A DNA stretch of 64,000 bases from a virus (Duplodnaviria > Heunggongvirae > Uroviricota > Caudoviricetes): the IMG/VR virus record IMGVR_UViG_3300037790_000024. The stretch is one strand, 5' to 3'. The notes beneath the pieces were generated by a model. That model was not told where the DNA came from. It worked only from the letters and a program-made list of their open reading frames with translations, and made no database searches. Made by a program: the position numbers and the translations under genes. Shown one piece after another: positions 10,485 to 50,228 of this stretch (position 1 is the first letter of the stretch; each line of letters starts with the position of its first letter).

Positions 10485-10496
10485 AGCTCCGTCTCC

Positions 10497-10865
10497 TTAT
10501 AGATTTTCAATACGTTGCTGGATCTCTTCAACAGAGAGACCTTCTAGCTCTGAAGCTTGTTTTTGTTCCAACACCTTCAGTAGTTTTTCTTTTTCAGCAG
10601 CTTTTTCAGCTTTTTCTTTAGCTGCTTTCTTCTCTTCCAGTCGAATATGAATGATGTACTTGACAATTTCAAACTTCAACTTGGTTTCTTTATCTACAGT
10701 GTTCTCAGCCAGAAAGTTCTCTTCCTCTGCTTCTTTAATCTCTTTATTAAGAGCTTTAGCAAGAGTGTTGAGTTTTTCCAGTGAGACATTCCACAGATCC
10801 TCAGTGCTAAGCACCCCCTGAGAGGTGCTGTAGCGTAATTTCATACGAGTTGCTTGTTCAAACAT
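10497..10865 (-). CDS. hypothetical K/E-rich coiled-coil protein
   Basis: 122 aa, KEKAEKAAEKEKL repeats. Confidence 0.45.
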   Translation of the reverse strand: MFEQATRMKLRYSTSQGVLSTEDLWNVSLEKLNTLAKALNKEIKEAEEENFLAENTVDKETKLKFEIVKYIIHIRLEEKKAAKEKAEKAAEKEKLLKVLEQKQASELEGLSVEEIQQRIENL

Positions 10866-10876
10866 AGTGATCCTCC

Positions 10877-12868
10877 TTAAAATTTCACTTTCACAATACG
10901 AGAGAATGATCCCTCTACTTTCACCAACAAATCAGCTCTTTTAGTTGAGCTAAAACCTAATCCAGACACTTGCTTATGACTGTCTGCCACCTGCATTTTA
11001 CCCCCCAACATTTCAAACACTTTACGATGTTGAGTTAGTTCTGGTTTTAAGAATTCATTATAGAATCCTCGTGCCACCTCATCATTTTGTGCCTTATCTA
11101 GGATAAAGAACACATGTTTATTACCTGTAGAGGTATCCCAGTAGTTAGGAGACAGCATAACCATAGAGGCTTTTTGCCATTGATTTGTAGCCATTCCCCA
11201 CACTTCAGTTGAGATAGTAGCTGAAGATGCATCCCCTGTCAAGAGTTTTACACCATTTTCTTGAGAATATTCAAACTCAGCTACAGTGACATTACCTCTG
11301 TCTCTAACTGCCTCTGTGTGGCTGAAGTTGTAAACTTCCCCTTGGCACTCAATCTCTACGTTAAAGCCAACATCTTTGCTCTCACGCTTACAAAAGTTAT
11401 TAACAACAACTTTGTATCTACCTTCCATACGTTTGTTAGAAGATGGGTAGATAACATTCTCTACCGGAGTGCGGGTGTCTCCCATACCAGCGTTCATGTC
11501 AACATCAAGCTTACCTCCTGTAGCTCTACAATGTTTGCTGTTAAACATGATTTCATAACCTGTAGGATCAATCACATGCAGATCCAGATCATCATAGTTA
11601 AACCACTCTAGAGAGATACGAAGCTCACCATCTACTTTACCACCAGCAGCCTTAACACGCTCTTTCATAGAGTCTGCGACATTACCTTTATAATCCCAAG
11701 ACAAGCCATTATCCCAGTTGAACAAAGATTTACTACCTTTGTTAGTAGGAGCAATAACACTCATCAGATTTGACTGGTGTTTGTTTTCCAGCAACACTTC
11801 AATACTTTTAGCCGTAGGAAGAATCTTTTCTTTAAATGTTTCAAAAGTCACCTCTTCCACTTTGCCCAGCTTGCGAGAGTTGACAGGCAAATCTTCTTTC
11901 ATTTGCTCGAATACAGAGCCAGTTTCTTTTGACCCCACTGAATTATCCCGATTAACATGTAGTACATAGTCCACAGGGATGTCATCAGGAGTGGCATGTC
12001 GTCGTGCCAATGAGTCCATATAGCCCAACTCAACCACCTTCTTCTCAGCAGCTTCAATCATGCCTTTGGTAGCCAGAGCTTTAGGACGTTTGTAGTTAGA
12101 AGGTGCTACTACATTTTCATAGCGCTTCACTGCTGTCTCCAGATCAACATCTTCAGATAGATCGATCAACAAAGTGCCGATAGCTGAATTGCGGATCTTT
12201 CCCCCATCTTTGGCATGTTCCCAAGCATATAGTGATTTAGCTTTCTTTGTTTTAAGTTTATCGTAGGCTTTTTTGTGAGCCAATACTTTTTGAACCCAGC
12301 TCTTATACTCATCCCCACGATACAAGCTACCTTGCAAGATAAGCTCTAGAACAATCTCCATTGCATCTTGAGAAAGTTCATTAAGAGAGCGTTCAAACAC
12401 ATTGCGAGTGCTCTTCATAGATCCCCTCTCAGCCTCAATTGAACAGGGCAGTGAAGACACTCTATTGTTTTCATAATAAAAGTGATCCCATGAAATAGCC
12501 TGACCGTCCTTATACTGAAGATTATACTCCACACCAAACTGACGATCCTTTGTTACAAAGTAATCCCTTGGTTTAGCTTTGGAAATAAGCTTGTGTAAAG
12601 CTGCTGGGATAGCATCATAAACACCATCTGCATATTCAAAATCCCAAACAGTGTGAATAACACCATCTTTTACTCCCACAATATGAGCGTAGTCTCTCAA
12701 GAAATGTCGGCAACAAGAGCAGTTGTGCTCCTGTCGATATTCCTCTGGGAATGCAGCCAAATATGCCTCGTTTGCAGCATCTCTTTCTACATCCATTACC
12801 AACACAGTGTCCATAGACATGATTAGATCTAGCCGTTCCTGCACCTTTTGACGAAATTGTGTAAACAT
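10877..12868 (-). CDS. large hypothetical protein (663 aa), function unknown
   Basis: Long uninterrupted ORF with RBS; internal motif DLDLHVIDPTGYEIMF...GGKLDVDMNAG; I do not recognise the family. Confidence 0.65.
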   Translation of the reverse strand: MFTQFRQKVQERLDLIMSMDTVLVMDVERDAANEAYLAAFPEEYRQEHNCSCCRHFLRDYAHIVGVKDGVIHTVWDFEYADGVYDAIPAALHKLISKAKPRDYFVTKDRQFGVEYNLQYKDGQAISWDHFYYENNRVSSLPCSIEAERGSMKSTRNVFERSLNELSQDAMEIVLELILQGSLYRGDEYKSWVQKVLAHKKAYDKLKTKKAKSLYAWEHAKDGGKIRNSAIGTLLIDLSEDVDLETAVKRYENVVAPSNYKRPKALATKGMIEAAEKKVVELGYMDSLARRHATPDDIPVDYVLHVNRDNSVGSKETGSVFEQMKEDLPVNSRKLGKVEEVTFETFKEKILPTAKSIEVLLENKHQSNLMSVIAPTNKGSKSLFNWDNGLSWDYKGNVADSMKERVKAAGGKVDGELRISLEWFNYDDLDLHVIDPTGYEIMFNSKHCRATGGKLDVDMNAGMGDTRTPVENVIYPSSNKRMEGRYKVVVNNFCKRESKDVGFNVEIECQGEVYNFSHTEAVRDRGNVTVAEFEYSQENGVKLLTGDASSATISTEVWGMATNQWQKASMVMLSPNYWDTSTGNKHVFFILDKAQNDEVARGFYNEFLKPELTQHRKVFEMLGGKMQVADSHKQVSGLGFSSTKRADLLVKVEGSFSRIVKVKF

Positions 12869-14504: not shown

Positions 14505-14612
14505 TTATTACTAAATAGTATGTATGTATAGATCAATTATCACTAAATAGTATATATTACTAAATATAACTAAATAGTATATATTAATATATATATAACT
14601 AAATATTAGAGG
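14505..14612. repeat. AT-rich repeat array (CTAAATAGTATATAT units) in divergent intergenic region
   Basis: 3-4 copies; located between denV (-) and first plus-strand early-type gene. Confidence 0.6.
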
Positions 14613-14742: not shown

Positions 14743-14931
14743 ATGAACTTTAGAATGACTAGAAGGTGTGGTGTTTATCTTTACACAGATGGAACTAAGT
14801 ATGTAGGAAAACTATTTCTTACTTCTAAAGAAACTCTTGAGAAGAACTGGAAGTGGTATTTTCCTTACACTGAAGAAGAGTTAGACAGTTTTGGGTTTAT
14901 TGCCCCTACTGAGTGGGAGGAAGTAAAATGA
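14743..14931 (+). CDS. hypothetical protein
   Basis: 62-aa first ORF after divergent promoter/repeat region, RBS gaggagaaaatATG. Confidence 0.4.
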   Translation: MNFRMTRRCGVYLYTDGTKYVGKLFLTSKETLEKNWKWYFPYTEEELDSFGFIAPTEWEEVK

Positions 14932-21988: not shown

Positions 21989-22091
21989 AAAAGATTGATC
22001 AAAGTGTTTACTTTTAAAAATAGATGATTTAGAATTGTTTGCAAGTGGCGGGGAATTGGTTCCCGCCCTTAACTCAAAAAAGGTGATTAAA

Positions 22092-23021
22092 ATGTCGAAT
22101 ATTGTTACTTTCCCATCTCGCGCCGTTGTTGCTCCTGTTGCTGAAATTGCAACCCCATCAACTGAGATCATCACAACCCCAACAGAGCAAGATCGAGCTG
22201 TCTTCTCTGATTATGCCCACCACGATCAGAAAATGTTTGATATTGAGAGTTTGCCTCTTTCCAGTGAGTATGGAGTTATCCCAGATAAAAAAGGCTTGTT
22301 TGTGAATGGCAAAAATATCAACATTGTCTCCCATCATTATGAGATCGTGCAGCCTAAAAAAGTATATGAAACATTTGTAAATGTTGCTGAGTCTTCAGGG
22401 CTTACAATTAACAAGGTGCTGACAAACCCCGCTAACGGTGGCCTGATGATCTCTGCCCTGTTTGACCAAGTGAAGATCACCGGAGAGGATCACAACGTCA
22501 ATTTAGTGTTCTACACTTCGCACTGTGGCAAATATAAAACCTTCCTTACTCTGGATATGCTGCGCATGGCTTGTTTTAATCAGGTGCCTTGTCTCTATCA
22601 GAATAAAGATCGCTTTATCTTTGCAGAAAAGCACTACAAAAATGCGCTTAATATTGACTTGCTGCAAAAGTATCTGGAAAACATTCCTGCCAGTGTTCAG
22701 GCATACAACACTAAAGCGGAAATGCTCAAAGATATTAAATTGAGCAAAGCGGATTTTGTCGAATGGTACAAGGAACAGATCAAACTGTCAGAGGCTAGCA
22801 AGCAATACGACAGCAAGATCGCAAACATTGCCAACACGTACACCTTCGCAGACGGTCAAGAGATTGCCGGAGACGGTACAGCATGGAAAGCATTTAACGC
22901 TATTACATACATGAACACGCACCAAGGAAGAAATACACAATTTAAGGAAGAAAACAAACTTATTAAAGGAGGAAATAACTCTATTGAGATGATGGATCAG
23001 CTTTTGGCTATGGCTGGCTAA
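22092..23021 (+). CDS. hypothetical protein, about 310 aa (possibly DUF932-like plasmid/phage protein; unverified)
   Basis: Start MSNIVTFPS with RBS aaaaaggtgattaaaATG; largest gene of the island; followed by terminator. Confidence 0.55.
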   Translation: MSNIVTFPSRAVVAPVAEIATPSTEIITTPTEQDRAVFSDYAHHDQKMFDIESLPLSSEYGVIPDKKGLFVNGKNINIVSHHYEIVQPKKVYETFVNVAESSGLTINKVLTNPANGGLMISALFDQVKITGEDHNVNLVFYTSHCGKYKTFLTLDMLRMACFNQVPCLYQNKDRFIFAEKHYKNALNIDLLQKYLENIPASVQAYNTKAEMLKDIKLSKADFVEWYKEQIKLSEASKQYDSKIANIANTYTFADGQEIAGDGTAWKAFNAITYMNTHQGRNTQFKEENKLIKGGNNSIEMMDQLLAMAG

Positions 23022-30179: not shown

Positions 30180-30387
30180 ATTCAAAAACAGACTTATTAT
30201 TCTACCACTGTTAATAATCATTCCTGTAGTGGCTCTTGTAGTAGGCACTGTAGATGGTTGTTGGGAGATTATAACGACAGGTTCTTACACAGAAACTTGG
30301 GAGTGGTTAAAAGAGGGTTGGAGTATTTTTAAAGAAGGTGTAGTTATTTTCTGGAAAGGGGGAGATCCTAGTGAAAATATTATTTAA
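30169..30387 (+). CDS. membrane protein
   Basis: MFHRFKNRLIILPLLIIIPVVALVVG TM helix. Confidence 0.45.
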   Translation: MFHRFKNRLIILPLLIIIPVVALVVGTVDGCWEIITTGSYTETWEWLKEGWSIFKEGVVIFWKGGDPSENII

Positions 30388-31336
30388 AGGACTATTTGGA
30401 AGTCACTTGTACGGACTTAATACAGAGAACAGTGACAGAGACTATAAAGCTGTATACCTGCCAGAGCCTGAGGATATTATCCTAGGTAGAGCTAAGGGAA
30501 GTATTTCTCACTCTACAGGCGGGAGTGATAGCAAGAATTCCTCAGAAGATGTAGACACAGAGTATTTTTCTCTTCAAGAGTTTGTCAAACTGGCTTGTCA
30601 GGGACAAACTGTAGCTATTGATATGCTTCACACCCCTCCTAGCCTAACTTTGGAAACTAGTGAGATCTGGGAACATCTTGTCTCTCATCGTCAATTATTC
30701 TATTCTAAAAATATGGACTCCTTTATGGGCTACGTTAAGAAACAGGCTGCTAAATACGGGATTAAAGGAAGTAAGGTAGCTGCATTGCAAGAGATTCTTG
30801 ATGTGATTGAAGAGGAAATGGATACAAACGGAGATATTCCTGATATATCTTATCTGCGTCATTCTCTGCCTGTCAATGAATATTGTTTCTGGGTGGATGA
30901 AGAAAACAACGGACAGAGCTTTTATTCGGTGAATGGGTCTTGGATGCATGATGTAATTTCTGTAGGGGAACTCCAGTCTAGAGTGCAAAAGCAGTATGAC
31001 AATTATGGACACAGAGCAAAACAAGCCGCTAATAATGAAGGTATTGATTGGAAAGCAATTAGTCATGCTCTAAGAGCTGGGTATCAACTTTACCATATTT
31101 TTGTAGAGGGAGATTTTGAATATCCTCTGATAGAAACCTACTACCTTAAGCAAGTTAAGGCTGGAGAGCTAGACTATACAACAAATGTTGCAGAGGAGCT
31201 GGAGCTTCTTGTGGAGATGTTAGATGCTAAAAGTGCTGAAGCACCTTTCCCAGAAAAGGTAGATTTTCAATACTGGGATGAATGGGTGTATTCTGTCTAC
31301 CTACAACATATTTTATTAGAGGAGGGGCTGCTATGA
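30371..31336 (+). CDS. nucleotidyltransferase (Pol-beta superfamily minimal NTase fold; resembles 'predicted nucleotidyltransferase' PF10127-type)
   Basis: N-terminal hG[GS]x9-13 DxD motif: LFGSHLYGLNTENSDRDYKAVYLP; GTG start with RBS; 321 aa. Confidence 0.6.
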   Translation: MKILFKGLFGSHLYGLNTENSDRDYKAVYLPEPEDIILGRAKGSISHSTGGSDSKNSSEDVDTEYFSLQEFVKLACQGQTVAIDMLHTPPSLTLETSEIWEHLVSHRQLFYSKNMDSFMGYVKKQAAKYGIKGSKVAALQEILDVIEEEMDTNGDIPDISYLRHSLPVNEYCFWVDEENNGQSFYSVNGSWMHDVISVGELQSRVQKQYDNYGHRAKQAANNEGIDWKAISHALRAGYQLYHIFVEGDFEYPLIETYYLKQVKAGELDYTTNVAEELELLVEMLDAKSAEAPFPEKVDFQYWDEWVYSVYLQHILLEEGLL

Positions 31337-31794
31337 GAGTGGTACAAGGAGATTTGTTTGAAGCCTTTAGGCTAGGCGTTGTAGATGCTATTGCCCACTG
31401 TGTAAACTGCAAAGGTGTTATGGGTAGTGGAGTGGCTTTACAGATGAAGGAAATCTACCCTGAGGTGTATAGAGTGTATAAAGATTTTGTGCAGGATTGC
31501 ATTTCGGAGGGCTATGTGCCTTTAGGAGAAAGCTTAGAAGTACACACCCAACACGGAGTTGTTTACAATTTGTTTGGACAAGAATATTATGGGAGGGATC
31601 AAAGACATCTTGATTATGGTGCTTTAGCAGACTCTCTAATAGGTATGTCTGTAGATCTTCCTGAGGGAACTACTGTAGGCTTTCCCTACAAGATTGGTTG
31701 TGATAGAGCTGGAGGCAACTGGGAGGTTGTACAAGAGATTATTTTCCACTTCCTAGAACGGGAAGGAATTAACGTAGTATTTTATCAGTTATGA
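31333..31794 (+). CDS. macro domain protein (ADP-ribose / Appr-1''-p processing)
   Basis: VVDAIAHCVNCKGVMGSGVALQ matches macro-domain glycine-rich loop (cf. AIVNAAN..LLGGGGVDGAI); ATGA overlap with upstream NTase. Confidence 0.7.
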   Translation: MRVVQGDLFEAFRLGVVDAIAHCVNCKGVMGSGVALQMKEIYPEVYRVYKDFVQDCISEGYVPLGESLEVHTQHGVVYNLFGQEYYGRDQRHLDYGALADSLIGMSVDLPEGTTVGFPYKIGCDRAGGNWEVVQEIIFHFLEREGINVVFYQL

Positions 31795-34153: not shown

Positions 34154-34723
34154 CTATTTTGATAATAATTTGTAATCTGGGAAATACTTCTTCATCTTAG
34201 GCAGATGATTTGCCTGAGAGTGCTCTTTCTGGCTCTCAGACAACTCTGACTCAAAGAATGTGATGGTCTTATTCTCTATATCTCTCAAAAACTCTATAGA
34301 GGGAATAAGTGCCACTTTTGAAGTAGGGTTCCAACTATACACCCTATTAATTCCTGTGTCAATATGATCTACTACAGCACGATCAAATCTATCCTTAATA
34401 CTATAAGGATCACAGAACATAATTTGGAAGTTTTCTCCTTCCCACCTAAAAGAAATAATTCTGTTTATTGTAAAATTGTTTCCTTGGTAGTATTCCGTGT
34501 TTACATCTTGAAGTATATTTAGAGGTTCTTCTAAAGCTTTCTCTAAAGCATTCTTCTCATCTCCTGCAAAGGTTCTAAGATAGATGTCAATATCATTGCA
34601 GGGTTTTCCCATCCACCAATCTCTACAGGCTCCCCCCGCAACAACTGCCTCTTCATCTACAAGATCGTGAATCCTCTCTAAAAACAAAGAGGCCACTTCC
34701 ATTTGTTTTTCTATTCTATCCAC
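34154..34723 (-). CDS. hypothetical protein
   Basis: 189 aa. Confidence 0.5.
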   Translation of the reverse strand: MDRIEKQMEVASLFLERIHDLVDEEAVVAGGACRDWWMGKPCNDIDIYLRTFAGDEKNALEKALEEPLNILQDVNTEYYQGNNFTINRIISFRWEGENFQIMFCDPYSIKDRFDRAVVDHIDTGINRVYSWNPTSKVALIPSIEFLRDIENKTITFFESELSESQKEHSQANHLPKMKKYFPDYKLLSK

Positions 34724-35030
34724 TTCTCCCCCTGTGTAGTTTATCCATAAGTTCTTCCCCCACTACTCTTACCCTCAAAGGATAGTCTTCCATCCTAAGG
34801 TTGTAAGCAGTGCCTGCTTTGAGCATATCTTTAGTTACGAGATGTTTGTGCATGTGCTCTATATCTTCGTAGTTTTTAAGAAGATACAAAGCCATTTTAT
34901 CATACACTTCGTCTGAAAGTATACTCTCATAACGGCAGTAGTAGCAATAGCTGGCTATTAGAAACCAGCTAAGTGCATTTTTCTTACCGTTTTTAAAAGC
35001 CTCTCGTGCTTCTTGGTCAAAGTTGTCCAT
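34716..35030 (-). CDS. hypothetical protein
   Basis: 104 aa. Confidence 0.45.
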   Translation of the reverse strand: MDNFDQEAREAFKNGKKNALSWFLIASYCYYCRYESILSDEVYDKMALYLLKNYEDIEHMHKHLVTKDMLKAGTAYNLRMEDYPLRVRVVGEELMDKLHRGRSG

Positions 35031-35535: not shown

Positions 35536-35778
35536 TTAGTATCCTTGAATCAAAACAATCTTAATATGTTCTTCTGGATCAAGATCTTCCTCGGCTACAC
35601 ACTCAGCCATGTATTCACTCTCGTAAATATATTCTTCACCTACCCAAGTAGCTGACATGGCATATTGACCATGATCAGCCTCTACCCTAACCTCCATCTC
35701 TGGATCAAGGTTTTCCAACTGTTTAATTAATTCTCTCACTTTCATATTAAAACTCCTCGTTATAACTACCAACATCAA
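35536..35778 (-). CDS. hypothetical acidic protein
   Basis: 80 aa. Confidence 0.4.
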   Translation of the reverse strand: MMLVVITRSFNMKVRELIKQLENLDPEMEVRVEADHGQYAMSATWVGEEYIYESEYMAECVAEEDLDPEEHIKIVLIQGY

Positions 35779-36652
35779 AAATGTTTGGCATACCTTTTAA
35801 AGTCCAGTGACGAATCATCTGTCTGCGATCATCAAAGACAGCATAAACATTATATTTTCCCCTAATGTGATTTTCGTACAACTCGTCTTTAATTACAGAG
35901 TCTTTACGGGAATCTCCGGCCTGTCTCATATACAGGGTAGGTTTAGGAGTTATATAGGAAGAAATCCATTCATAAGTTTCTTTATAACAACTTCCATCCC
36001 TACCTGATAAGAAGATAATATCTATCCCAGTTTGAGAACGAATCCCTGAGACAGCAGCTATAATAGACTCTCTAGGAGAATCTTCCCCCACCTTGCTCCA
36101 ATCAAAAGGCGATCTTCCTTCCATAGAGGCCACAGTACCGTCAATATCACAGATAATGCAATCTGGTAGATCAGGAGCATGCTCATAAAGTTTAACACTT
36201 CCAAACTGTCGTTCAAACCTTATATACTGATCCCACAGTAGAGCTTCAGACAAACCCCCCTGTCTCTGAGCGTTACGCTTAACTAAAGTTTCCCAAGGAC
36301 AAGGGAAGAGTTTTTCCTCATAATCATACCCACAGTCCTTAGCCCACTGCTTCCATTTATTACGAGCTTTGGTGCTAAGGTTGGTATCTGAAATTATGAT
36401 GTTGGAGTTATTGTGTGTAGCCCACTTAGCTTTCTGCAACTGAACCTCAGTAACCTTATTCTCATTGTTTTTTGAAAATTTATACTTAGTCCAGTCCCTG
36501 ACAGAATTTGTAAACAATGAAAAGCGGATCTCATCTCTATTGAGGTTAGCCCATTTCTCACCTTTAGCTATACCTTCTATCTTGAACTCTTCAGCCCAAG
36601 TAGTTTTACCTGAAGCGCTGGCTCCAATTGTTAAAATAATTTTTGGCATCAT
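35747..36652 (-). CDS. pseT: polynucleotide 5'-kinase/3'-phosphatase (T4 Pnk homolog)
   Basis: MMPKIILTIGASASGKTTWAEEF vs T4 [22 protein letters not shown]; C-terminal HAD-like phosphatase DIDGT...DDR; 301 aa, same length as T4 Pnk. Confidence 0.85.
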   Translation of the reverse strand: MMPKIILTIGASASGKTTWAEEFKIEGIAKGEKWANLNRDEIRFSLFTNSVRDWTKYKFSKNNENKVTEVQLQKAKWATHNNSNIIISDTNLSTKARNKWKQWAKDCGYDYEEKLFPCPWETLVKRNAQRQGGLSEALLWDQYIRFERQFGSVKLYEHAPDLPDCIICDIDGTVASMEGRSPFDWSKVGEDSPRESIIAAVSGIRSQTGIDIIFLSGRDGSCYKETYEWISSYITPKPTLYMRQAGDSRKDSVIKDELYENHIRGKYNVYAVFDDRRQMIRHWTLKGMPNIFDVGSYNEEF

Positions 36653-36933: not shown

Positions 36934-37215
36934 CTACCTCCCTTCATAAAACCACATATACGCATTACAGTAGGCATGCACTGCCCCCTCTGTCATCCCA
37001 GTGTTATGATCATGCTGTAGATGGACAGGCCATTTAAGAAAATTAGGAGGAAACAGCCTCCAATCAATATACTTGCTAGTTATACCAGCAGGGGGCTTGT
37101 TTATCAACAACTCGTTGCAAAACATGCAACGGCCTTTTTGTCTTCTAACATACTCCTCTCTAACCTCCTTTCTTTCTCTAGGAGAGAGTTTTTCATAGTT
37201 GGTGGGGAGATTCAT
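36934..37215 (-). CDS. hypothetical Zn-binding protein
   Basis: CMFCNE...HLQHDHNTG...HAYCN. Confidence 0.45.
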   Translation of the reverse strand: MNLPTNYEKLSPRERKEVREEYVRRQKGRCMFCNELLINKPPAGITSKYIDWRLFPPNFLKWPVHLQHDHNTGMTEGAVHAYCNAYMWFYEGR

Positions 37216-38510
37216 TATGAAGCATCCTCCTCGTCCACGTTTTCTTCTTTGTAGATCCCTTCCATAATGCGGAATGCTTTAGATTTGTTTTTATAAAACT
37301 TGGGTGTCAAACCTTGTCCATCTACACGGATAACAACACCTTCATTAACATGAGATGGATCTCTGTAGTCTTCTGTCAACACCTCAGGGCGGTCTGTTAG
37401 CTGATCTACCAGTTCTACTAGTTTATCTTTATCTCCATCATAAACAAAAGGCTCTACCAGATCAAGAGGTGGCTCAATGCCACGTTGCTCACACCAAGCT
37501 ACCAACTGAGGCTCTGTCAAATCCACCTCTGTTCCATCTACAGTGGTGTATGTAACACGGTAGGCGTAAAACTTGTAGTTTCCTTCAGGGCAACCATACT
37601 TGTACACCATAGTGTCTCCATACTTCTTAGTGTAAGCCTTGTCTTTTAGAGTTTTTACATTGTGGCTTCCCATAATAGGTTTGTCGTTAGCGTAGCCCAC
37701 GATCTCCCCATATACAGTAACACCTCTTTCCAGATGAGGCTTTAGTTGCTCCAGAATCTCAAAGCGAAAGGCTTCTGATCCATGAAAACCGTCTTTGTCT
37801 TTATCGACAGATTTCAAAACAACTCTTCGTGTGCCTGCAACATATTCCCACTCTTCTGTTTTGAAGATAGGCACTACTTTATTAATCAACTTCTTCCACT
37901 CTGGAAGATTTTTAGTCACCAAGGTGTTAGAATAACGAGCTGAAGTGCCATGTCCTTTAGCCTGAATAGAGATAACAGATCCAACAGGAATACGATCAAC
38001 ACTATATTTAAACTGATCTGTATCTACGTGCTGGTGGAACAAAGGAGTTTCAACAGCTTTACGAGCTTGTTTTTTCTTGTTGCCAATAGCTCTGAGGGTG
38101 TGAGGATTGACATATTTCTTAGCAATGCCAACTCCATTCAGTTCTTCAAACTGATCTCCCAAAGAAAAAGTGTCAATATCATAGCCAGTGAACACCAAGG
38201 AGTTAATATCAGTGAAATAGCCACAAGATTTAACTCCTAAGAAAGGTTGTGCTCTCACCTTACCGTTGTCGTCAAAAAATCCTTTCTTGTCAGGATCTTT
38301 GTTTTTATCTGAGTGGCGATAAAGATTGTTGTTTGACAAAAACTCTGGAGACAACTGAGTGTCTGGTGGGAAGAACACACCAACATACCCCACTTCCAGT
38401 TCTTTTGAAACAATAACTGGTTCTCCAAGTACATACGCCACTTGAATTTTATTTGCCTTTTCGATAGGCTCAACTTTGTCAATTTTTGCAATAATACCAC
38501 AATAGTTCAT
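37215..38510 (-). CDS. RNA ligase (Rnl2-like nucleotidyltransferase motif KxHGT) fused to N-terminal tRNA-binding OB-fold (EMAP/Myf-like) domain
   Basis: N-term CGIIAKIDKVEPIEKANKIQVAYVLGEPVIVSKEL resembles tRNA_bind domain; IQAKGHGTSARY resembles Rnl2 motif I EKIHGTNFS; adjacent to pnk; 431 aa. Confidence 0.6.
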   Translation of the reverse strand: MNYCGIIAKIDKVEPIEKANKIQVAYVLGEPVIVSKELEVGYVGVFFPPDTQLSPEFLSNNNLYRHSDKNKDPDKKGFFDDNGKVRAQPFLGVKSCGYFTDINSLVFTGYDIDTFSLGDQFEELNGVGIAKKYVNPHTLRAIGNKKKQARKAVETPLFHQHVDTDQFKYSVDRIPVGSVISIQAKGHGTSARYSNTLVTKNLPEWKKLINKVVPIFKTEEWEYVAGTRRVVLKSVDKDKDGFHGSEAFRFEILEQLKPHLERGVTVYGEIVGYANDKPIMGSHNVKTLKDKAYTKKYGDTMVYKYGCPEGNYKFYAYRVTYTTVDGTEVDLTEPQLVAWCEQRGIEPPLDLVEPFVYDGDKDKLVELVDQLTDRPEVLTEDYRDPSHVNEGVVIRVDGQGLTPKFYKNKSKAFRIMEGIYKEENVDEEDAS

Positions 38511-42714: not shown

Positions 42715-42789
42715 TGGCCTGCTTACAAGGACTCGAACCCTGACTAAGGGAGTAGAAATCCCTTGTGCTATCCATTACACCATAAGCAG
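42715..42789 (-). tRNA. tRNA-Arg (TCT)
   Basis: Acceptor CTGCTTA/TAAGCAG, anticodon loop TTTCTAC, T-loop TTCGAGT, CCA encoded. Confidence 0.8.
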
Positions 42790-42794
42790 TTATT

Positions 42795-42871
42795 TGGTCG
42801 GAGATAAAGGACTTGAACCTTTGACCCCTTGCTCCCAAAGCAAGTGCTCTACCAGACTGAGCTAATCTCCG
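42795..42871 (-). tRNA. tRNA-Pro (TGG)
   Basis: Acceptor CGGAGAT/ATCTCCG, anticodon loop TTTGGGA, CCA encoded. Confidence 0.8.
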
Positions 42872-42879
42872 TTTTGTTC

Positions 42880-42950
42880 TGGGGTGACGCGCAGAATCAA
42901 ACTGCTCCATACAGGGTCACAACCTGATGTCCTCTCAGAGGTACGCCACA
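42880..42950 (-). tRNA. degenerate tRNA-His-like element (anticodon GTG; abnormal D-arm); possible pseudo-tRNA
   Basis: Acceptor GTGGCGT/GCGTCAC + C73 + CCA, anticodon loop TTGTGAC, but D-arm only about 11 nt. Confidence 0.3.
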
Positions 42951-43016
42951 TTAAATAAGTGAGAGGTTGTTGGCGCAACCCCTCTTGATGAATTGACAGC
43001 TCATCATCGTTTATTA

Positions 43017-43092
43017 TGGCAGGGAAGGTGAGACTCGAACTCACGCATCAGGGGATCAAAGCCCCTTGCCTTATCCACTTGGCTACTTCCCA
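43017..43092 (-). tRNA. tRNA-Gln (TTG)
   Basis: Anticodon loop CTTTGAT, T-loop TTCGAGT, CCA encoded. Confidence 0.75.
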
Positions 43093-43099
43093 ACTTATT

Positions 43100-43186
43100 T
43101 GGTACAGGAGGAGAGACTCGAACTCTCACGCCACTAAGGACACTGGAACCTAAATCCAGCGCGGCTACCAATTACGCCACTCCTGC
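43100..43186 (-). tRNA. tRNA-Leu (TAG), type II
   Basis: Acceptor GCAGGAG/CTCCTGT, anticodon loop TTTAGGT, long variable arm. Confidence 0.8.
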
Positions 43187-43197
43187 ATATTTTCTAA

Positions 43198-43282
43198 TGG
43201 TACGAGAGGTGGGGATCGAACCCACACGCTAAAAAGCAAGGGATTTTAAGTCCCTCATGACTACCAATTCCATCACTCTCGC
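43198..43282 (-). tRNA. tRNA-Leu (TAA), type II
   Basis: Anticodon loop CTTAAAA, long variable arm, T-loop TTCGATC. Confidence 0.8.
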
Positions 43283-43371
43283 TATAAGGAGGATTCTAGA
43301 TACGTCTACCTAGCGATACTGGTACTCCAGTCAACGTACTCTCGCAGAGGTTCCTCTCTCTCTTTTTGTAT

Positions 43372-43447
43372 TGGTTGAGGCAGTTGGACTTGAACCAACG
43401 ACAACCCGATTATCGGTCGGGTACTCTACCAACTGAGTTATGCCTCA
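43372..43447 (-). tRNA. tRNA-Ile (GAT)
   Basis: Acceptor TGAGGCA/TGCCTCA, anticodon loop CCGATAA. Confidence 0.75.
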
Positions 43448-43452
43448 TTATT

Positions 43453-43581
43453 TGGTGGAATGATCTGGGTTTTATCCAGAGACCTAGTTTCAAACTAGTC
43501 AGCCTTGTATAGCCAGCATAAATTGTCTCGGTTTGGACTTACCTCCCCTCTCTTTTCGGACGACTCTCCTGCTTTCATTCC
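43453..43581 (-). ncRNA. 129-nt tRNA-like element: 7-bp acceptor-like stem GGAATGA/TCATTCC + A + CCA, T-arm-like hairpin, about 55-nt insertion in 5' half
   Basis: Sits in register within the tRNA array, 5 nt from tRNA-Ile and 6 nt from tRNA-Asn; internal hairpin GACTAG-TTTGAAA-CTAGGTC (anticodon-like TGA). Confidence 0.4.
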
Positions 43582-43587
43582 GTAAGG

Positions 43588-43659
43588 CTGGCATGGTAGG
43601 ACTCGAACCTACGACAACAACATTAACAGTGTTGCGTTCTACCACTGAACTACATGCCA
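43588..43659 (-). tRNA. tRNA-Asn (GTT), CCA not encoded
   Basis: Anticodon stem CAACA/TGTTG loop CTGTTAA; T-arm GTAGGTTCGAGTCCTAC. Confidence 0.75.
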
Positions 43660-43669
43660 ATATTCTTTT

Positions 43670-43745
43670 TGGTGCTCCGTCAGGGACTCGAACCCCATCT
43701 CCCAAGTTATGAGCTTGGCACTCTTACCCGATGAGTTACCGGAGC
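43670..43745 (-). tRNA. tRNA-Met (CAT) elongator-type (or Ile-lysidine CAT)
   Basis: Acceptor GCTCCGG, anticodon loop CTCATAA, G1-C72 paired. Confidence 0.7.
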
Positions 43746-43875
43746 GTGTATTCTATCACAGTCTGTTCCTGTGAGTCAAGCCCTAACCATCACGTTAGTT
43801 AATGCGCCTTAGCGGGGATTCAAACCCTATTCTGATACCAATTGTCGCTACCTAGCAGAATCGAACTGCATGCTC

Positions 43876-43965
43876 TGGCAGAGGGAGAGGGATTTGAACC
43901 CTCGGAGGCTTTTAAGCCTCACCACCTTAGCAGGGTGGTACAATAAACCGCTCTGACATCCCTCT
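43876..43965 (-). tRNA. tRNA-Ser (GCT), type II
   Basis: Acceptor AGAGGGA/TCCCTCT, anticodon loop CTGCTAA, long variable arm, T-loop TTCAAAT. Confidence 0.8.
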
Positions 43966-43970
43966 ATGTT

Positions 43971-44046
43971 TGGAGCGGGTGATGGGATTTGAACCCACAA
44001 CATCTGACTTGGAAGGACAGCACTCTACCAATTGAGTTACACCCGC
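43971..44046 (-). tRNA. tRNA-Gly (TCC)
   Basis: Acceptor GCGGGTG/CACCCGC, anticodon loop CTTCCAA, T-loop TTCAAAT. Confidence 0.8.
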
Positions 44047-45870: not shown

Positions 45871-46007
45871 TCTCCCTCCAACAACAATGATTATACCACA
45901 ACACCGATGTTTGTCAAGTGTTGATTTAAATTATTCGACAAACACAGGTAGTGTGCCACACCTGATAGTGAAATGTCAAATTATTTGTGGCTATGTGTAA
46001 AAAGGTA

Positions 46008-46036
46008 TTGACAAAACCACTACCTGATGGTATAAT
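46008..46036 (+). promoter_or_regulatory. consensus sigma70 promoter TTGACA-17-TATAAT
   Basis: ttgacaaaaccactacctgatggtataat; upstream of repeat array and the 46176 gene. Confidence 0.6.
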
Positions 46037-46054
46037 CTTTAAATATAAAATATT

Positions 46055-46168
46055 ATATATTACTAAATATCACTTAATAGTATATATCACTAAATAGTAG
46101 ATCAAATTATTAGATCAATTATCACTAAATAGTATATATTACCAAATAGTATATATCACCAAATAGGA
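46055..46168. repeat. AT-rich repeat array (CACTAAATAGTATATAT units); shares an identical 32-mer with the 14505-14612 array
   Basis: tagatcaattatcactaaatagtatatattac present at about 46111-46142 and about 14529-14560. Confidence 0.6.
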
Positions 46169-46175
46169 GGATCGT

Positions 46176-46601
46176 ATGAACCAGCTAGGAGAAATGATTG
46201 CTTTAGTATCTCACAGATTTAAAAACAAGACAGATAAGGGAGGTAATCCCTACATCCTTCACTGCCTGTACGTGATGAATAAAGTGAGTCACTTAGGAGA
46301 GCTTGCTATGATTGTTGGGGTGGGACATGACTTGTTAGAAGATACTAACATAACTCCTTCAGATTTGTGGGGTCTGGGTTTTGGGGACGATGTTATCGAT
46401 CTCTTAAAGAAAGTAACTCATCTAGACGGGGAGCCTTACATGGACTATATCAAGAGAGCCGCCTCCCATCCAATTTCACGAGCTGTTAAAATGGCTGACT
46501 TAGAACACAACAGCCAAATCTTTCGTATGAAAGGACTTCGGCAGAAAGACTTTGAACGTCTTGAGAAGTATTTTACAGCCTATGCCTACTTGAGTGAATG
46601 A
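46176..46601 (+). CDS. HD-domain (p)ppGpp hydrolase, Mesh1/SpoT-hydrolase-like small alarmone hydrolase
   Basis: ALVSHRFKNKTDKGGNPYILHCLYV and GVGHDLLEDTNITPSDLWGLGFGDDVIDLLKKVTH match HD_4 His...HD...ED motifs. Confidence 0.7.
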   Translation: MNQLGEMIALVSHRFKNKTDKGGNPYILHCLYVMNKVSHLGELAMIVGVGHDLLEDTNITPSDLWGLGFGDDVIDLLKKVTHLDGEPYMDYIKRAASHPISRAVKMADLEHNSQIFRMKGLRQKDFERLEKYFTAYAYLSE

Positions 46602-46830
46602 TATGAGTAATGTTTGTGATATTTGTGGGGAGGGAGAGGTTACACTGAAGTGTTCTCCCAACTTTGTTATGTTTAGAGAGCATTCAACTACGCTACCAGC
46701 ATATTTTTTGTTTTGCAACTGCTGTGAAGTAGCTTACGCTAATGAAGATATTCTATATCTAAATAAACTTCAATACGAGTCTTTTAGAGTGGAGAGGGAG
46801 CTTAAAGAAACTTACGAGAGGACTGCATGA
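46594..46830 (+). CDS. zinc-finger protein
   Basis: CDICGEG...CNCC. Confidence 0.45.
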   Translation: MNDMSNVCDICGEGEVTLKCSPNFVMFREHSTTLPAYFLFCNCCEVAYANEDILYLNKLQYESFRVERELKETYERTA

Positions 46831-47258
46831 TAGAACAGTTTAAAGAACCTTATCGGTGGCTTTCTAACTTTTGGAAGTTTAATACTCCTTTGGAGTATCA
46901 GAACTTATTGTTTCCTACAGTAGAGCATTTTTATGTTGCAATGAAGACTACCTCTTGGGATTTAAGACATCAAGCATCTCTTACAGATAGACCTAAATCT
47001 TTTGGGAGAGGTTTAGAGCTTAGAGAAGACTGGGAGCAGATTAAGTTAGATGTAATGCTGTATGCAACAAGGTATAAATACTCAGAATTAAATCCAAACC
47101 TAAGAAGGAAACTCTTAAACACTGGAGAGGAATATATTCAGGAAGGTAATTGGTGGGGGGATAAGTTCTGGGGAGTTTGTCTTAAAACAGGAGAAGGAGA
47201 GAACAATCTAGGGAAGATAATCATGCAAGTGAGGGAGGAGATAAGGGATGCCATTTAA
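46827..47258 (+). CDS. NADAR-domain protein (YbiA-like; DUF1768)
   Basis: YRWLSNFWKFNTPL...FPTVEHFYVAMKT and GNWWGDKFWGVCLKTGEGENNLGKIIMQVREEI parallel E. coli YbiA FSNF...PTSEHYFQAQKF and YWGDGG...GKNRLGYLLMELREQL. Confidence 0.7.
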   Translation: MIEQFKEPYRWLSNFWKFNTPLEYQNLLFPTVEHFYVAMKTTSWDLRHQASLTDRPKSFGRGLELREDWEQIKLDVMLYATRYKYSELNPNLRRKLLNTGEEYIQEGNWWGDKFWGVCLKTGEGENNLGKIIMQVREEIRDAI

Positions 47259-47613
47259 AGCTATTGTCGCAGGAGGGAGAGGATTCTCAGACTTTGACTT
47301 GTTGTGTGATAAGCTTGACTTCTATTTCTCAGAGATCCCAGATGCAATAGAGATTGTTTGTGGAGGGGCTAGAGGCGCTGATGCACTAGGGGACTTGTAT
47401 GCTAAAAATAATGCTTTAGATGTAACTTACTTCCCCGCTAACTGGGATAAACACGGTAAGCAAGCGGGTATTCTACGAAACATAGAGATGGGAGAGTATG
47501 CAGACGCTCTAGTGGCTTTCTGGGATGGGAAGTCTTCTGGCACAAAGCACATGATCGAGTATATGGATATTGTTGCTAATAAACCTGTAAGGGTGGTGAG
47601 GTATGATAGATAA
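47248..47613 (+). CDS. SLOG-family protein (DUF2493/YspA-like Rossmann fold)
   Basis: IVAGGRGFSD...IVCGGARGADALGDLYA...YFPANWDKHGKQAGILRN...VAFWDGKSSGTKHMI matches DUF2493 pattern. Confidence 0.6.
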   Translation: MPFKAIVAGGRGFSDFDLLCDKLDFYFSEIPDAIEIVCGGARGADALGDLYAKNNALDVTYFPANWDKHGKQAGILRNIEMGEYADALVAFWDGKSSGTKHMIEYMDIVANKPVRVVRYDR

Positions 47614-47794
47614 AAAACAAAATGGATGGTGGTGGTTGTACAGGCCAGCTATTCTAGACGGTTTTAAACACTGGTGTGAAAAAGAAAACAAAGAACCCAC
47701 ACAAGAACAGTTTATAGAATATATGAACGGAACTTTTAACATTGAAGAGGAACAAAATTTTGATAGAAAAATTAAACCTAACTCTAACACTTAA
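47603..47794 (+). CDS. hypothetical protein
   Basis: 63 aa. Confidence 0.4.
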   Translation: MIDKKQNGWWWLYRPAILDGFKHWCEKENKEPTQEQFIEYMNGTFNIEEEQNFDRKIKPNSNT

Positions 47795-47972
47795 GTTTGA
47801 CAAAGAAGGTTTTATAAAACACTTTTCGGAATGGTGTGATCTTACTGAGAGTGAAGGAAGCTTAGAGGATCAATTTGAAGAATTTTGGGGTAGTTACTTA
47901 AATAACTACGTTGAATATACCTTAGAAAACAAAAATAATAGAGGTGATAATAATGAGATGTCGCGCTTGTAA
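47742..47972 (+). CDS. hypothetical protein (overlaps previous by about 50 nt; start uncertain)
   Basis: 76-aa ORF. Confidence 0.3.
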   Translation: MKRNKILIEKLNLTLTLKFDKEGFIKHFSEWCDLTESEGSLEDQFEEFWGSYLNNYVEYTLENKNNRGDNNEMSRL

Positions 47973-48165
47973 TAGACCCCTCAGTATGGGGACAATACAC
48001 ATGAAAGATGCTGACGGTAATCCTGAGGATACTTGCGGTATTTGTAGAGGAAAGAGTGTTCAGGAATACTCTTATAGTTTTGATCATGAGTATGAGAACC
48101 AGCATATCTCAGAGGGATTATCTCATAACTCTAAGTCTGGCTACTATTACGAGTGGTATGACTAA
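47953..48165 (+). CDS. zinc-finger protein
   Basis: MRCRACNRP...CGICRG. Confidence 0.4.
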   Translation: MRCRACNRPLSMGTIHMKDADGNPEDTCGICRGKSVQEYSYSFDHEYENQHISEGLSHNSKSGYYYEWYD

Positions 48166-48192: not shown

Positions 48193-48220
48193 TTGACAAA
48201 TAGGTATACTGTGCTATAAT
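48193..48220 (+). promoter_or_regulatory. near-consensus sigma70 promoter TTGACA-16-TATAAT upstream of packaging/structural operon
   Basis: ttgacaaataggtatactgtgctataat. Confidence 0.55.
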
Positions 48221-48351
48221 TAAGTGTAATAGTGGAAAAAGGGCATGAAAGCAAGCCCTAACGTTTTATGTCGCACGATCCTCCTCCTTTGGTGTGACAG
48301 CGGGGAGGCACACTCCCCTTTCTTACAGAATTTTAATATTAAGAGAAGAGT

Positions 48352-48701: not shown

Positions 48702-50228
48702 ATGGCTAAGCAAGTAATCCGGCCTCAGAGGGGGTCTCAGGAACTTGCCATGAACATTAAGGCTGACTTAATTATTTATGGTGGTGCAGCAGGTTCTGGT
48801 AAGTCCCACCTACTTTTAATGAAGTCACTACCTTACATTAAAGACCCTAACTTCCATGCGTCATACTTTAGACGTAATACAAAACAGCTTACACAACAAG
48901 GTGGTTTGTGGGAAGAAAGTGGCAAAATGTACAGGCCATTTAAACCAAAAACAAATTCAAGCGACAAGAAGCACACATTTCGTTCAGGGTCTTCTATCGC
49001 TTTTAATCACTTAGAACATGAAAAGCATAAACTGTCCTACCAAGGTGGTCAGTTATCAGCTATCTTTTTCGATGAGCTTACTCACTTTACAGAGACACAG
49101 TTCACCTACCTACTATCTCGTTTGCGTTCTGATGCAGAAGTAGATGGTTTTTGTATGGCTAGCTGTAACCCAGATAATGAAAGCTGGGTGTTAAACTGGG
49201 TAGAATGGTGGTTGGATGAAGAAGGATATCCAGATAAAGATAAACAAGGTGTTGTAAGATACTACCTGATTATAGATGATAAACCTGTCTTTGCTGATAC
49301 AGCAGAAGAACTTGAAGATCTTTATCCAGATATGTGTAGGGTGTACAATCCAAACACAGATGAATATGTACATGTTCCACCAAAAACATTTACATTTATT
49401 TCTGGAACAATCTTTGATAATCCTATTCTGATTCAGAACAACCCTAAATATCTAGCAGAGCTTAATGCTCTTCCTCGTGTAGAGAGAGCTAGACTTCTGG
49501 AAGGGAATTGGTATGCAGTTCCTGAGTCTGAAGGTTACTGTAAAAGAGAATGGTTCTTAAAGGCCAGTGCTTTACCAAATCAAGTTAAGATGGCAAGGGC
49601 TTGGGATAAGGCTGCAACAGAGCCTAGTGAGGTTAATCGTTATCCTGACTTTACCGCTTCTGTAGGAATGGCTAAAGACAGAGACGGATTCTACTACCTT
49701 TTCGGTAACTACTGTCCTGAGAATAAGGACAAGGTAGACCCAGAAATAAAAGGCAGATTTAGAAGAAGAGCTGGAGAAAGAGATAAGATTATTCTTAAGC
49801 AGGCTCAATATGATGGAGAAGAAACTACAGTGGTTCTCCCTGAGGATGCTGGAGCTGCTGGTAAGATGGAATTCACAGAGAGTTCTAAAAGTTTGATAGA
49901 GGCAGGATTCTTAGTTAAAAGAGACCCCACTCCTACAAACAGAAGTAAGCTTACCAGATTCCTACCTTTTGCAGCAGCCTGTGAAAACGGATTAGTTTAT
50001 ATTGTAGAGAACACTTTTGAGAAAAAAGTGTTGGACTACCTGTACAAAGAACTGGAAGCATTTAGCGGAGAGCCTAGTACATCAGCAAGAAAAGATGATG
50101 TGTGTGACTGCACTGCTTCAGCTTTTAATTTTCTGGCAAAACAAAAAGTGTTGCCTAGTTTTAGTTTAAATGTTAATAACACCAATAGTAAAGTAGCTAA
50201 TGTTAAACAAAGTGTTTTTGCTACTTAG
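48702..50228 (+). CDS. terminase large subunit
   Basis: Walker A GGAAGSGKS, Walker B-like IFFDELTHF, C-terminal nuclease acidic residues; 508 aa. Confidence 0.9.
   Translation: MAKQVIRPQRGSQELAMNIKADLIIYGGAAGSGKSHLLLMKSLPYIKDPNFHASYFRRNTKQLTQQGGLWEESGKMYRPFKPKTNSSDKKHTFRSGSSIAFNHLEHEKHKLSYQGGQLSAIFFDELTHFTETQFTYLLSRLRSDAEVDGFCMASCNPDNESWVLNWVEWWLDEEGYPDKDKQGVVRYYLIIDDKPVFADTAEELEDLYPDMCRVYNPNTDEYVHVPPKTFTFISGTIFDNPILIQNNPKYLAELNALPRVERARLLEGNWYAVPESEGYCKREWFLKASALPNQVKMARAWDKAATEPSEVNRYPDFTASVGMAKDRDGFYYLFGNYCPENKDKVDPEIKGRFRRRAGERDKIILKQAQYDGEETTVVLPEDAGAAGKMEFTESSKSLIEAGFLVKRDPTPTNRSKLTRFLPFAAACENGLVYIVENTFEKKVLDYLYKELEAFSGEPSTSARKDDVCDCTASAFNFLAKQKVLPSFSLNVNNTNSKVANVKQSVFAT

Follow-up and report, generated by a model that had tools for sequence, protein, structure and literature searches.

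Organization of the locus

The stretch of DNA analysed here (IMG/VR record IMGVR_UViG_3300037790_000024; hereafter the window) comprises 64,000 nt of an uncultivated large tailed phage, and all coordinates refer to the whole window. Our subject is a + strand gene unit encoding an HD-domain hydrolase, a NADAR protein and a SLOG protein, which a sequence-only reading of the DNA had described as an anti-defence-looking cluster at the head of the late operon. In the list of open reading frames (ORFs) the three genes sit at exactly the positions given by that reading, within a + strand run of abutting or overlapping ORFs that spans from the divergent junction at ~45.9 kb to the large terminase gene (48702-50228). 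The unit and its borders contain the following features.

45890-45917, - strand: divergent twin promoter with a perfect sigma-70 consensus
46008-46036, + strand: promoter driving the unit, a perfect sigma-70 TTGACA-17-TATAAT with a TG extended -10 element
46045-46169, + strand: AT-rich 5' leader with about five copies of the operator-like repeat ATCACYAAATAGTA at 17-nt spacing
46176-46601, + strand: predicted HD small alarmone hydrolase (SAH) of the Aph1/PbcSpo type, 141 residues, with an AGGAGG ribosome-binding site 5 nt upstream
46603-46830, + strand: orphan CxxC...CxxC zinc-ribbon ORF, 75 residues from ATG 46603 or 78 residues from GTG 46594
46827-47258, + strand: NADAR protein with a bare YbiA-fold core, 143 residues, a predicted ADP-ribosyl-guanine N-glycohydrolase
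47248-47613, + strand: SLOG protein (YAcAr/DUF2493) of the YpsA/DprA-like clade, 121 residues, with the ribosome-binding site GGGAGGAG
47603-47794, 47742-47972 and 47944-48165, + strand: small ORFs of 63, 76 and 73 residues that close the unit
48193-48220, + strand: next perfect sigma-70 promoter, the downstream boundary of the unit
48302-48318: hairpin resembling a terminator (GGGGAGgcacaCTCCCC and then a T-run), ahead of DUF5681 and the terminase gene

The genes of the segment 46008-48165, which lies just upstream of the packaging genes, are translationally coupled and make up a self-contained accessory operon. Inspection of the junctions shows that the HD stop codon is followed by one base and then by the ATG of the zinc-ribbon ORF, the stop of which overlaps the NADAR start (ATGA); this ORF (46603/46594-46830) is translationally coupled to both of its neighbours. 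NADAR and SLOG overlap by 11 nt, as do SLOG and the next ORF, each with a Shine-Dalgarno sequence. The position described by the sequence-only reading is borne out: a few small genes separate the three from DUF5681 and the large terminase gene. The 73-residue ORF at 47944-48165 is zinc-ribbon-like and conserved upstream of terminase in relatives. The zinc-ribbon ORF at 46603-46830 was seen only in strain variants of the window phage, and its 78-residue product was rejected as a NADAR partner on that ground; it was likewise rejected as an MqsA-like antitoxin, the match to MqsA (E = 0.0017) being below the cut-off and limited to the zinc ribbon. A PADLOC search returned zero matches for the HD protein, the SLOG protein and the small ORFs of the unit.

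The assignments of the three proteins to the HD, NADAR and SLOG families all hold, with intact catalytic residues. In Pfam, NADAR (PF08719) and DUF2493 (PF10686) score above their cut-offs, whereas HD_4 (PF13328) scores below its own, and the HD assignment is secured by the other evidence described next.

The HD protein

The HD protein is predicted from its sequence to be an adenosine 3'-pyrophosphohydrolase of the Aph1/PbcSpo type that acts on (p)ppApp, and not a generic ppGpp hydrolase. It matches PHROG 990 ('metal-dependent phosphohydrolase'; E = 3e-46), and against the PDB it finds Aph1 (7SMG, '(p)ppApp hydrolase') with an E value of 5e-24, compared with 7e-7 for Rel and 7e-4 for MESH1. 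The metal-binding and catalytic residues His29, His51, Asp52 and Asp108 are invariant in 120/120 homologues. When the C-terminal 54 residues were searched against the whole PDB they matched only residues 90-143 of 7SMG (E = 4.8e-11), with no Rel, SpoT or MESH1 chain at E <= 10; counted on the PDB-search alignment, this Aph-specific region is 52% identical to Aph1. It was with the non-HD C-terminus (Tyr90-Glu143) as query that Ahmad et al. separated the Aph family from ppGpp hydrolases (PMC10083569).

The six signature residues of Aph1 (Asp24, Arg96, Asp116, Arg119, Lys133 and Tyr134) correspond to Asp20, Arg94, Gln114, Arg117, Lys131 and Tyr132 in the window protein, so that five of the six are kept. 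Asp20 and Arg117 are invariant in 120/120 homologues and Lys131 and Tyr132 nearly so, and positions 94 and 114 vary within the clade formed by these sequences. By mutagenesis, Asp24 and Arg119 set the (p)ppApp specificity of Aph1, with D24R mimicking SpoT/Rel (PMC10083569); at the Asp24 position the window protein has the invariant aspartate and not a basic residue. All 12 of the 12 Aph1 homologues tested hydrolyse ppApp, and two of them show modest activity on ppGpp (Ahmad et al., 2023; PMC10083569). The HD hydrolase of the sequence-only reading thus stands, but its ppGpp specificity does not: Aph1 is far closer than Rel or MESH1, the C-terminus matches only Aph1, and Asp20 and Arg117 are kept.

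The PbcSpo subfamily includes ATfaRel of C. marina and the SAH of Salmonella phage PVP-SE1. Like these proteins and Aph1, which comes from a Bacteroides caccae prophage, the window protein is a single HD domain of ~140-150 residues with an H...HD...D site. In contrast to these systems, its gene has no toxSAS, MuF toxin or (p)ppApp synthetase gene beside it, and it lies in a promoter-proximal accessory operon of a large phage that appears to be lytic. The protein shares 39% identity with PVP-SE1 gp220 (E = 6e-30), which is encoded at 136.8 kb; no HD homologue was found in the 50-100 kb segment of that genome. Jimmy et al. reported that the SAHs of PVP-SE1 (PbcSpo subfamily) and SSU5 neutralize 5/5 toxSAS toxins tested, and proposed phage SAHs as a route past alarmone-based defence (PMC7229694). 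Kurata et al. found that tRNA with a pyrophosphorylated CCA end can be aminoacylated again through the action of the SAHs ATfaRel and MESH1, and the same has been reported for PaSpo. Our literature search found no paper showing a phage SAH acting as counter-defence during infection. Since a 3'-pyrophosphate on adenosine is common to (p)ppApp and pyrophosphorylated tRNA, we infer that the window enzyme would remove this group from (p)ppApp and probably also from tRNA A76.

The NADAR protein

The NADAR protein scores 79.9 bits against PF08719 (cut-off 35.1) and matches phrog_1017 (E = 9e-37). Residues Glu33, Lys40, Trp69, Glu106 and Asp112 are invariant in 121 sequences and Trp115 is kept in 119/121; in the alignment this catalytic set maps to Glu43, Lys50, Trp89, Glu125, Asp130 and Trp133 of PnNADAR, the residues that contact ADP-ribose. 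The only structures matched by an AlphaFold model (pLDDT 97.8) are YbiA of E. coli (TM 0.81) and 8BAU, a Phytophthora NADAR in complex with ADP-ribose (TM 0.76). The 143-residue chain is a bare YbiA core with no N-terminal extension.

A diagnostic residue of the last strand is Glu106 here, Asp in DarT1-linked NADARs and His in T4 gp30.3/AdfN. The DarT1-associated subfamily (DarG1/BC4488) was rejected for the window protein, which has Glu106 in place of Asp, no basic N-terminal extension and no DarT1 neighbour. Together with the lack of a PADLOC DarG match and of an ADP-ribosyltransferase (ART) gene nearby (Pfam census of ORFs in 138-48165), these features indicate that it is not a DarG1-type antitoxin. 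A T4-type AdfN was rejected on account of Glu106 and of the phage matches, which come from Vibrio, T5-like, Streptomyces and similar phages and not from T-even ones. The model for the YbiA riboflavin-intermediate N-glycosidase (TIGR02464) scores 58.4 bits, below its 73.7-bit NCBIfam cut-off, although the YbiA-type glutamate is present.

NADAR homologues occur in 469 phage records, and the window protein is 42.9% identical over its full length to a Tequintavirus (Markadamsvirinae) NADAR. Johannesman, Carlson and LeRoux showed that the NADARs of Bas32 (Markadamsvirinae) and Bas60 (Vequintavirinae) neutralize DarT1 and restore phage growth on DarTG1 strains (PMC11257639). By description these two resemble the window protein in being stand-alone proteins of ~145 residues with a full catalytic set in large lytic phages; they differ in that no SLOG partner is reported for either. 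All NADAR subtypes tested free guanine of ADP-ribose in vitro, with subtype-specific rescue in cells (PMC11125620). Given this shared action on guanine and the success of Markadamsvirinae and Vequintavirinae NADARs against DarTG1, the protein is likely to be an ADP-ribosyl-guanine glycohydrolase, as judged from its sequence. Its specificity in vivo cannot be read from sequence, as E. coli YbiA and T4 gp30.3 were active in vitro yet failed in cells. Of the earlier suggestion that the NADAR counters DarT1, the NADAR itself and the precedent of DarTG1-countering non-T4 phage NADARs survive, and membership of the DarT1-linked type does not.

The closest NADAR homologues from cultured phages are in Vibrio phages 166E36-1 (L001 5001-5444) and 277E43-1 (L002 5001-5443), each annotated as two short coding sequences. 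For 277E43-1, tblastn gives a match in two parts, so that this NADAR may be frameshifted or inactivated, and an HD-domain protein lies ~2 kb downstream. The window NADAR is more acidic than its family (isoelectric points 6.2 and 8.5).

It could be asked whether the HD protein, the NADAR or both provide self-immunity by neutralizing a toxin of the phage itself. There is precedent: phage-encoded Aph1 confers immunity to the (p)ppApp synthetase that its prophage carries fused to MuF (PMC10083569), NADAR/YbiA proteins act as antitoxins for DarT1 and YarT, and DarG1 is the antitoxin of DarT1. We nevertheless consider this very unlikely. A Pfam census of ~94 ORFs in 138-48165 found no RelA/SpoT-type (RSH) synthetase, ADP-ribosyltransferase or MuF domain, so a phage-borne toxin partner was rejected over that range, which stops short of the structural ORFs from 50242 on and lies in a 64-kb window of a genome that is probably >100 kb. 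A separate scan of the cluster ORFs and the terminase was likewise negative for a toxin partner, the immediate neighbours are the orphan zinc ribbon and small ORFs, and only 0.4-1.5% of Aph homologues are near MuF or portal genes (Ahmad et al.; PMC10083569).

The SLOG protein and its linkage to NADAR

The SLOG protein scores 59.5 bits against YAcAr/DUF2493 (PF10686; cut-off 28.2) and matches phrog_289 (E = 4e-28). It belongs to a family of >1,600 homologues in which the motifs GGR-F, G-ARGAD, W..G..AG..RN and FWDG-S-GT are sharply conserved. There was no PDB match at the sequence level; the AlphaFold model (pLDDT 96) has the expected Rossmannoid SLOG fold, and its nearest structural neighbours belong to the YpsA/DprA clade rather than to LOG. 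Sequence identity to ShosA, DprA and B. subtilis YpsA is only 13-19%, and the 121-residue protein consists of the core alone, whereas DprA and ShosA have SAM and extended Rossmann domains. No other family member has an isoelectric point as low as its 5.05 (median 9.2). A DprA-like single-stranded DNA (ssDNA) binder is not favoured for this core-only, acidic copy, though the family may include such binders.

NADAR and SLOG form a recurrent linked pair. We compared 80 viral loci centred on each of HD, NADAR and SLOG, counting genes within 10 kb. A YAcAr SLOG was present in 8/80 NADAR-centred loci but in 1/80 HD-centred ones (Fisher p = 0.034), and reciprocally a NADAR was found near 6 of the 80 SLOG anchors. 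In three contigs without mutual DNA similarity the SLOG gene directly adjoins NADAR (binomial p = 0.006). Furthermore, in a viral contig unrelated to the window (L191), a single ORF at 9530-10336 is a fusion of NADAR (residues 17-148) and a YAcAr SLOG (157-218) that keeps the NADAR-then-SLOG order of the window. The SLOG protein is therefore likely to be a functional partner of the NADAR.

In passages of their survey of NAD+/ADP-ribose systems in viruses, Iyer, Burroughs, Anantharaman and Aravind (2022) predict that viral SLOGs sense or degrade signals derived from ADP-ribose, and report that SLOG genes are fused to, or neighbours of, NADAR and Macro genes, some of them near terminase and portal genes (PMC9503650). 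The window resembles the neighbourhoods described there in having a YpsA-like SLOG beside NADAR, near terminase, with a Macro in the genome; it differs in the presence of an Aph1-type alarmone hydrolase in the operon. Those passages, in which 'ppGpp' does not occur and 'alarmone' occurs once, do not link this hydrolase family with NADAR or SLOG.

The three activities could also be read as reprogramming of host metabolism, with the HD protein lowering alarmones to sustain host translation and nucleotide synthesis, the NADAR clearing riboflavin intermediates or free ADP-ribose derivatives, and the SLOG protein acting as a LOG-like phosphoribohydrolase in nucleotide salvage. The YbiA likeness of the NADAR in sequence, structure and Glu106 speaks for this, as do the many phage records that label NADAR homologues as riboflavin or YbiA proteins, the 58-bit TIGR02464 score and a paper on phage Adele that hypothesizes alarmone modulation by its SAH. 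It is nonetheless distinctly unlikely: the HD signature is that of (p)ppApp and not of ppGpp, TIGR02464 stays under its cut-off, the window census contains no riboflavin genes, the phage NADARs tested all act on ADP-ribosyl-guanine, and the SLOG is nearest to YpsA/DprA.

A variable slot upstream of the packaging genes

The three genes do not form one conserved module. HD-centred loci almost never contain the other two (NADAR in one and SLOG in one of 80, ~9 kb away), and the reverse tests recovered HD in 2/80 NADAR-centred and 3/80 SLOG-centred loci, all weak cases. A conserved trio was therefore rejected, the HD gene being a neighbour that is independent of the NADAR-SLOG pair. The closest relative found (L003; large terminase 77% identical) has HD followed directly by SLOG, with neither the zinc-ribbon ORF nor NADAR. 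The corresponding slot holds six unrelated small ORFs in a second relative (L007, 4330-6220) and a 330-residue RlaP-like protein in a third (L008, 6918-7910). The conserved frame consists of the 73-residue zinc-ribbon gene, DUF5681 and terminase, and the slot upstream of it behaves as an exchange site for accessory genes. Being absent from relatives, none of the three genes is essential to the lineage. As for the 'cluster' of the sequence-only reading, its NADAR-SLOG half is a recurrent pair, while the HD gene is unlinked (1/80), one relative lacks NADAR and two lack all three genes.

These observations bear on whether the genes are unrelated accessory 'morons' without a joint function. The unlinked HD gene, the different slot content in every relative examined and the independent occurrence of each family in ~450-480 phage records fit such a view, and the recurrent NADAR-SLOG adjacency, the existence of a fusion protein and the translational coupling of the genes behind one promoter do not. 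We regard it as possible, if on the unlikely side.

Promoters, leader and timing of expression

Perfect promoters of the form TTGACA-N16-18-TATAAT occur four times in the 64 kb (95-123 and 45890-45917 on the - strand, 46008-46036 and 48193-48220 on the + strand) against 0.04 expected, and three of the four bracket the unit. L003 has five in 16 kb (at 1719, 6228, 7691, 7762 and 9258) against ~0.04 expected, and in both phages they are located at transcription-unit boundaries. L003 shares the back-to-back promoter pair upstream of HD as well as the downstream promoter. With its own perfect promoter, a second one before the packaging genes and conservation of this arrangement in L003, the unit is a separate transcription unit that host RNA polymerase would recognize without modification. 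It may be expressed early, which is at least as likely as late expression. The unit does lie upstream of terminase, as expected of the 'head of the late operon', but it has its own promoter, another precedes the packaging genes, and late expression is unproven. No terminator is predicted between 48165 and 48193, so that read-through into the packaging genes is possible, and attenuation or processing at the start of the packaging operon is a possible role for the hairpin at 48302-48318.

The AT-rich leader is ~140 nt long and contains an array of the 14-nt repeat ATCACYAAATAGTA at 46069-46168. This repeat occurs nine times in the window, where 1.7 matches would be expected, and nowhere outside two arrays; the second of these (14507-14608) is at the other divergent junction of the window, ahead of small + strand ORFs starting at 14743. 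Its confinement to two arrays at divergent junctions suggests that the HD-NADAR-SLOG unit is co-regulated with those ORFs. The L003 leader is repetitive too, but its repeat differs in sequence. With no Rfam match at E <= 1, the window leader was rejected as a riboswitch or any known RNA.

The macrodomain ORF and RNA-repair genes

The sequence-only reading also pointed to a separate macrodomain, which it took as an eraser of DarT2 marks that would give this phage both known erasers of DNA ADP-ribosylation. This ORF lies in a region with RNA-repair genes.

30371-31336: RlaP RNA-repair nucleotidyltransferase, its end overlapped by the macrodomain ORF
31333-31794, + strand: macrodomain ORF, with ATG 31333 being Met18 of ORF 31282-31794
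34154-34723: weak match to a poly(A)-polymerase/CCA-adding head domain
34716-35030: protein with an Nlig-Ia NAD-binding domain
35747-36652: PNKP
37215-38510: RNA ligase

The best PDB relatives of the macrodomain ORF are the DarG macrodomains 5M3I and 5M31, and it matches the PADLOC DarG model over the whole domain (E = 2.5e-14). It is a macrodomain only, with no C-terminal DarT-binding domain, and its NCBIfam DarG score is 49.7 against a cut-off of 250. In the HMMER and MAFFT alignments the DarG segment 'FPTKKHW' aligns to 'LFGQEYYG'. We take the FPTKK segment to hold the catalytic lysine (Lys80 of DarG, Lys84 of TARG1), and as far as these alignments go the ORF appears to be without it. A role in RNA repair or in the handling of soluble ADP-ribose derivatives is at least as likely as erasure of DarT2 marks. 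A DarG-like macrodomain is thus present at 31333 as claimed, but with the lysine missing and the ORF overlapping the RlaP gene, the DarT2 function, and with it the pair of erasers, is unproven.

The RNA-repair genes raise the possibility that NADAR and SLOG clean up by-products, processing ADP-ribose 1''-phosphate, Appr>p or signals like cyclic ADP-ribose together with PNKP, RNA ligase, RlaP and the macrodomain, or destroying TIR/Thoeris signals. According to passages of the Aravind survey, phage Macro, NADAR and SLOG proteins mostly target soluble ADP-ribose derivatives and have RNA-repair associations (PMC9503650); the window holds a full RNA-repair kit, and an RlaP-like gene occupies the same slot in L008. 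We judge this reading rather unlikely, since in experiments phage NADARs act on ADP-ribosyl-guanine in DNA and defeat DarTG1 (PMC11257639), and the RNA-repair genes are 8-16 kb away with some on the other strand.

The phage and its relatives

The window phage is a large tailed phage, distantly related to rV5-like phages and to Vibrio and Aeromonas myoviruses: its terminase shares 44-54% identity with the terminases of Vequintavirinae and of large Klebsiella, Aeromonas and Vibrio myoviruses. A megablast search with the cluster as query found no match among 50,697 phage records, so that the phage has no close cultured relative. The exact NADAR and SLOG proteins recur in the same gene order on SRA contigs SRR12659294, SRR12659219 and SRR12659119 and in JGI 3300037780 and 3300012855, which shows that the phage is real, recurrent and uncultivated. 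An array of 10 tRNAs (42715-44046) lies near the terminase in a layout resembling that of PVP-SE1; these tRNAs, PNKP, RNA ligase and RlaP indicate a phage heavily invested in tRNA protection.

Between its zinc-ribbon gene and terminase L003 encodes a 518-residue protein (9810-11366) with no counterpart in the window, made up of many degenerate 'GDN(V/T)(T/S)xxNS(T/S)(T/S)EGS(I/V)SQxH(T/I)L' repeats. Among the replication and early genes of the window, the Pfam census of 138-27599 gave weak STAND-NTPase, AAA_16 and KaiC-type P-loop matches, a DUF932 protein (22035-23021) and an SPFH/Band-7 protein.

Proposed function

We propose that the operon serves counter-defence by erasing nucleotide modifications inflicted by host defence systems, through the HD, NADAR and SLOG proteins, and we assign this reading a probability of roughly 0.6. 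For the HD and NADAR genes it is the most plausible interpretation, in agreement with the sequence-only reading. A host-type promoter of maximal strength would drive the operon, which sits in a slot of variable content with the divergent junction on one side and the packaging genes on the other. By stripping the 3'-pyrophosphate off adenosine, the HD enzyme would break down toxic (p)ppApp. It would probably share with ATfaRel and PaSpo the ability to clear the pyrophosphate that toxSAS enzymes (CapRel, FaRel2, PhRel) place on tRNA CCA ends, restoring aminoacylation. The NADAR, as an N-glycosidase, would cleave ADP-ribose off guanine in DNA and thereby counter DarT1-like or other guanine-directed ADP-ribosyltransferases. 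The SLOG protein would work with the NADAR and may bind or process a ligand of the ADP-ribose type or aid substrate targeting.

Several observations weigh against this proposal. The analysis itself establishes the gene structure, the family membership, the intact active sites, the promoter architecture and the NADAR-SLOG linkage; what the enzymes act on, when they are expressed and which defences they counter are inferred. For the HD protein, the HD_4 match (22.2 bits, E = 1.3e-4) is under the 27.2-bit gathering threshold of PF13328, a shortfall that we consider marginal since many homologues with 50-74% identity have a precomputed PF13328 match; the signature residue Asp116 is replaced by Gln114; and gp220, the only HD homologue in the 96 kb of the PVP-SE1 genome scanned, is presumably, but not certainly, the SAH tested by Jimmy et al. 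For the NADAR, the closest PDB relative by both sequence and structure is E. coli YbiA, with which it shares the YbiA-type Glu106; PADLOC gave no match to DarG-type or DarG1 models and only one to a candidate-system model (E = 2.8e-5); and neither E. coli YbiA nor T4 gp30.3, though active in vitro, rescued cells from DarT1 in the one test published (PMC11125620). The structural neighbours of the SLOG include DprA and ShosA, which bind ssDNA, and the DUF2493/YAcAr literature yielded no functional study, only a helicase fusion in ICP1 HelB. Finally, NADAR is absent from L003, and all three genes are absent from L007 and L008.

A stronger form of the counter-defence proposal, to which we give little credence, would make NADAR and SLOG an obligate two-part eraser, direct the HD enzyme mainly to 3'-pyrophosphorylated tRNA and treat the operon as an immediate-early, operator-controlled multi-eraser cassette. 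For the NADAR, which has no DNA-binding extension like that of DarT1-linked NADARs, SLOG would then recognize the ADP-ribosylated substrate or capture or degrade the released product. If true, the cassette would pre-empt several abortive-infection chemistries at once, within a wider programme of tRNA protection.

The elements of the counter-defence proposal are individually published: phage NADARs against DarTG1, phage alarmone hydrolases and NADAR-SLOG-Macro neighbourhoods (PMC7229694, PMC10083569, PMC11257639, PMC11125620, PMC9503650). The locus does not overturn current understanding; it is a good but ordinary example, a compact and testable set of counter-defence candidates from an uncultivated phage lineage. 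Many of the 'ppGpp hydrolase' and 'metal-dependent phosphohydrolase' labels in phages (the HD family is found in ~450 phage records) may be better read as Aph1/PbcSpo-type adenosine 3'-pyrophosphohydrolases, directed at (p)ppApp or pyrophosphorylated tRNA and thus against toxSAS/CapRel-type immunity. The slot behind the strong promoter could be mined for further anti-defence genes. The most useful lead is the recurrent pairing and fusion with NADAR, which provides a concrete handle on the function of the widespread DUF2493 SLOG family.

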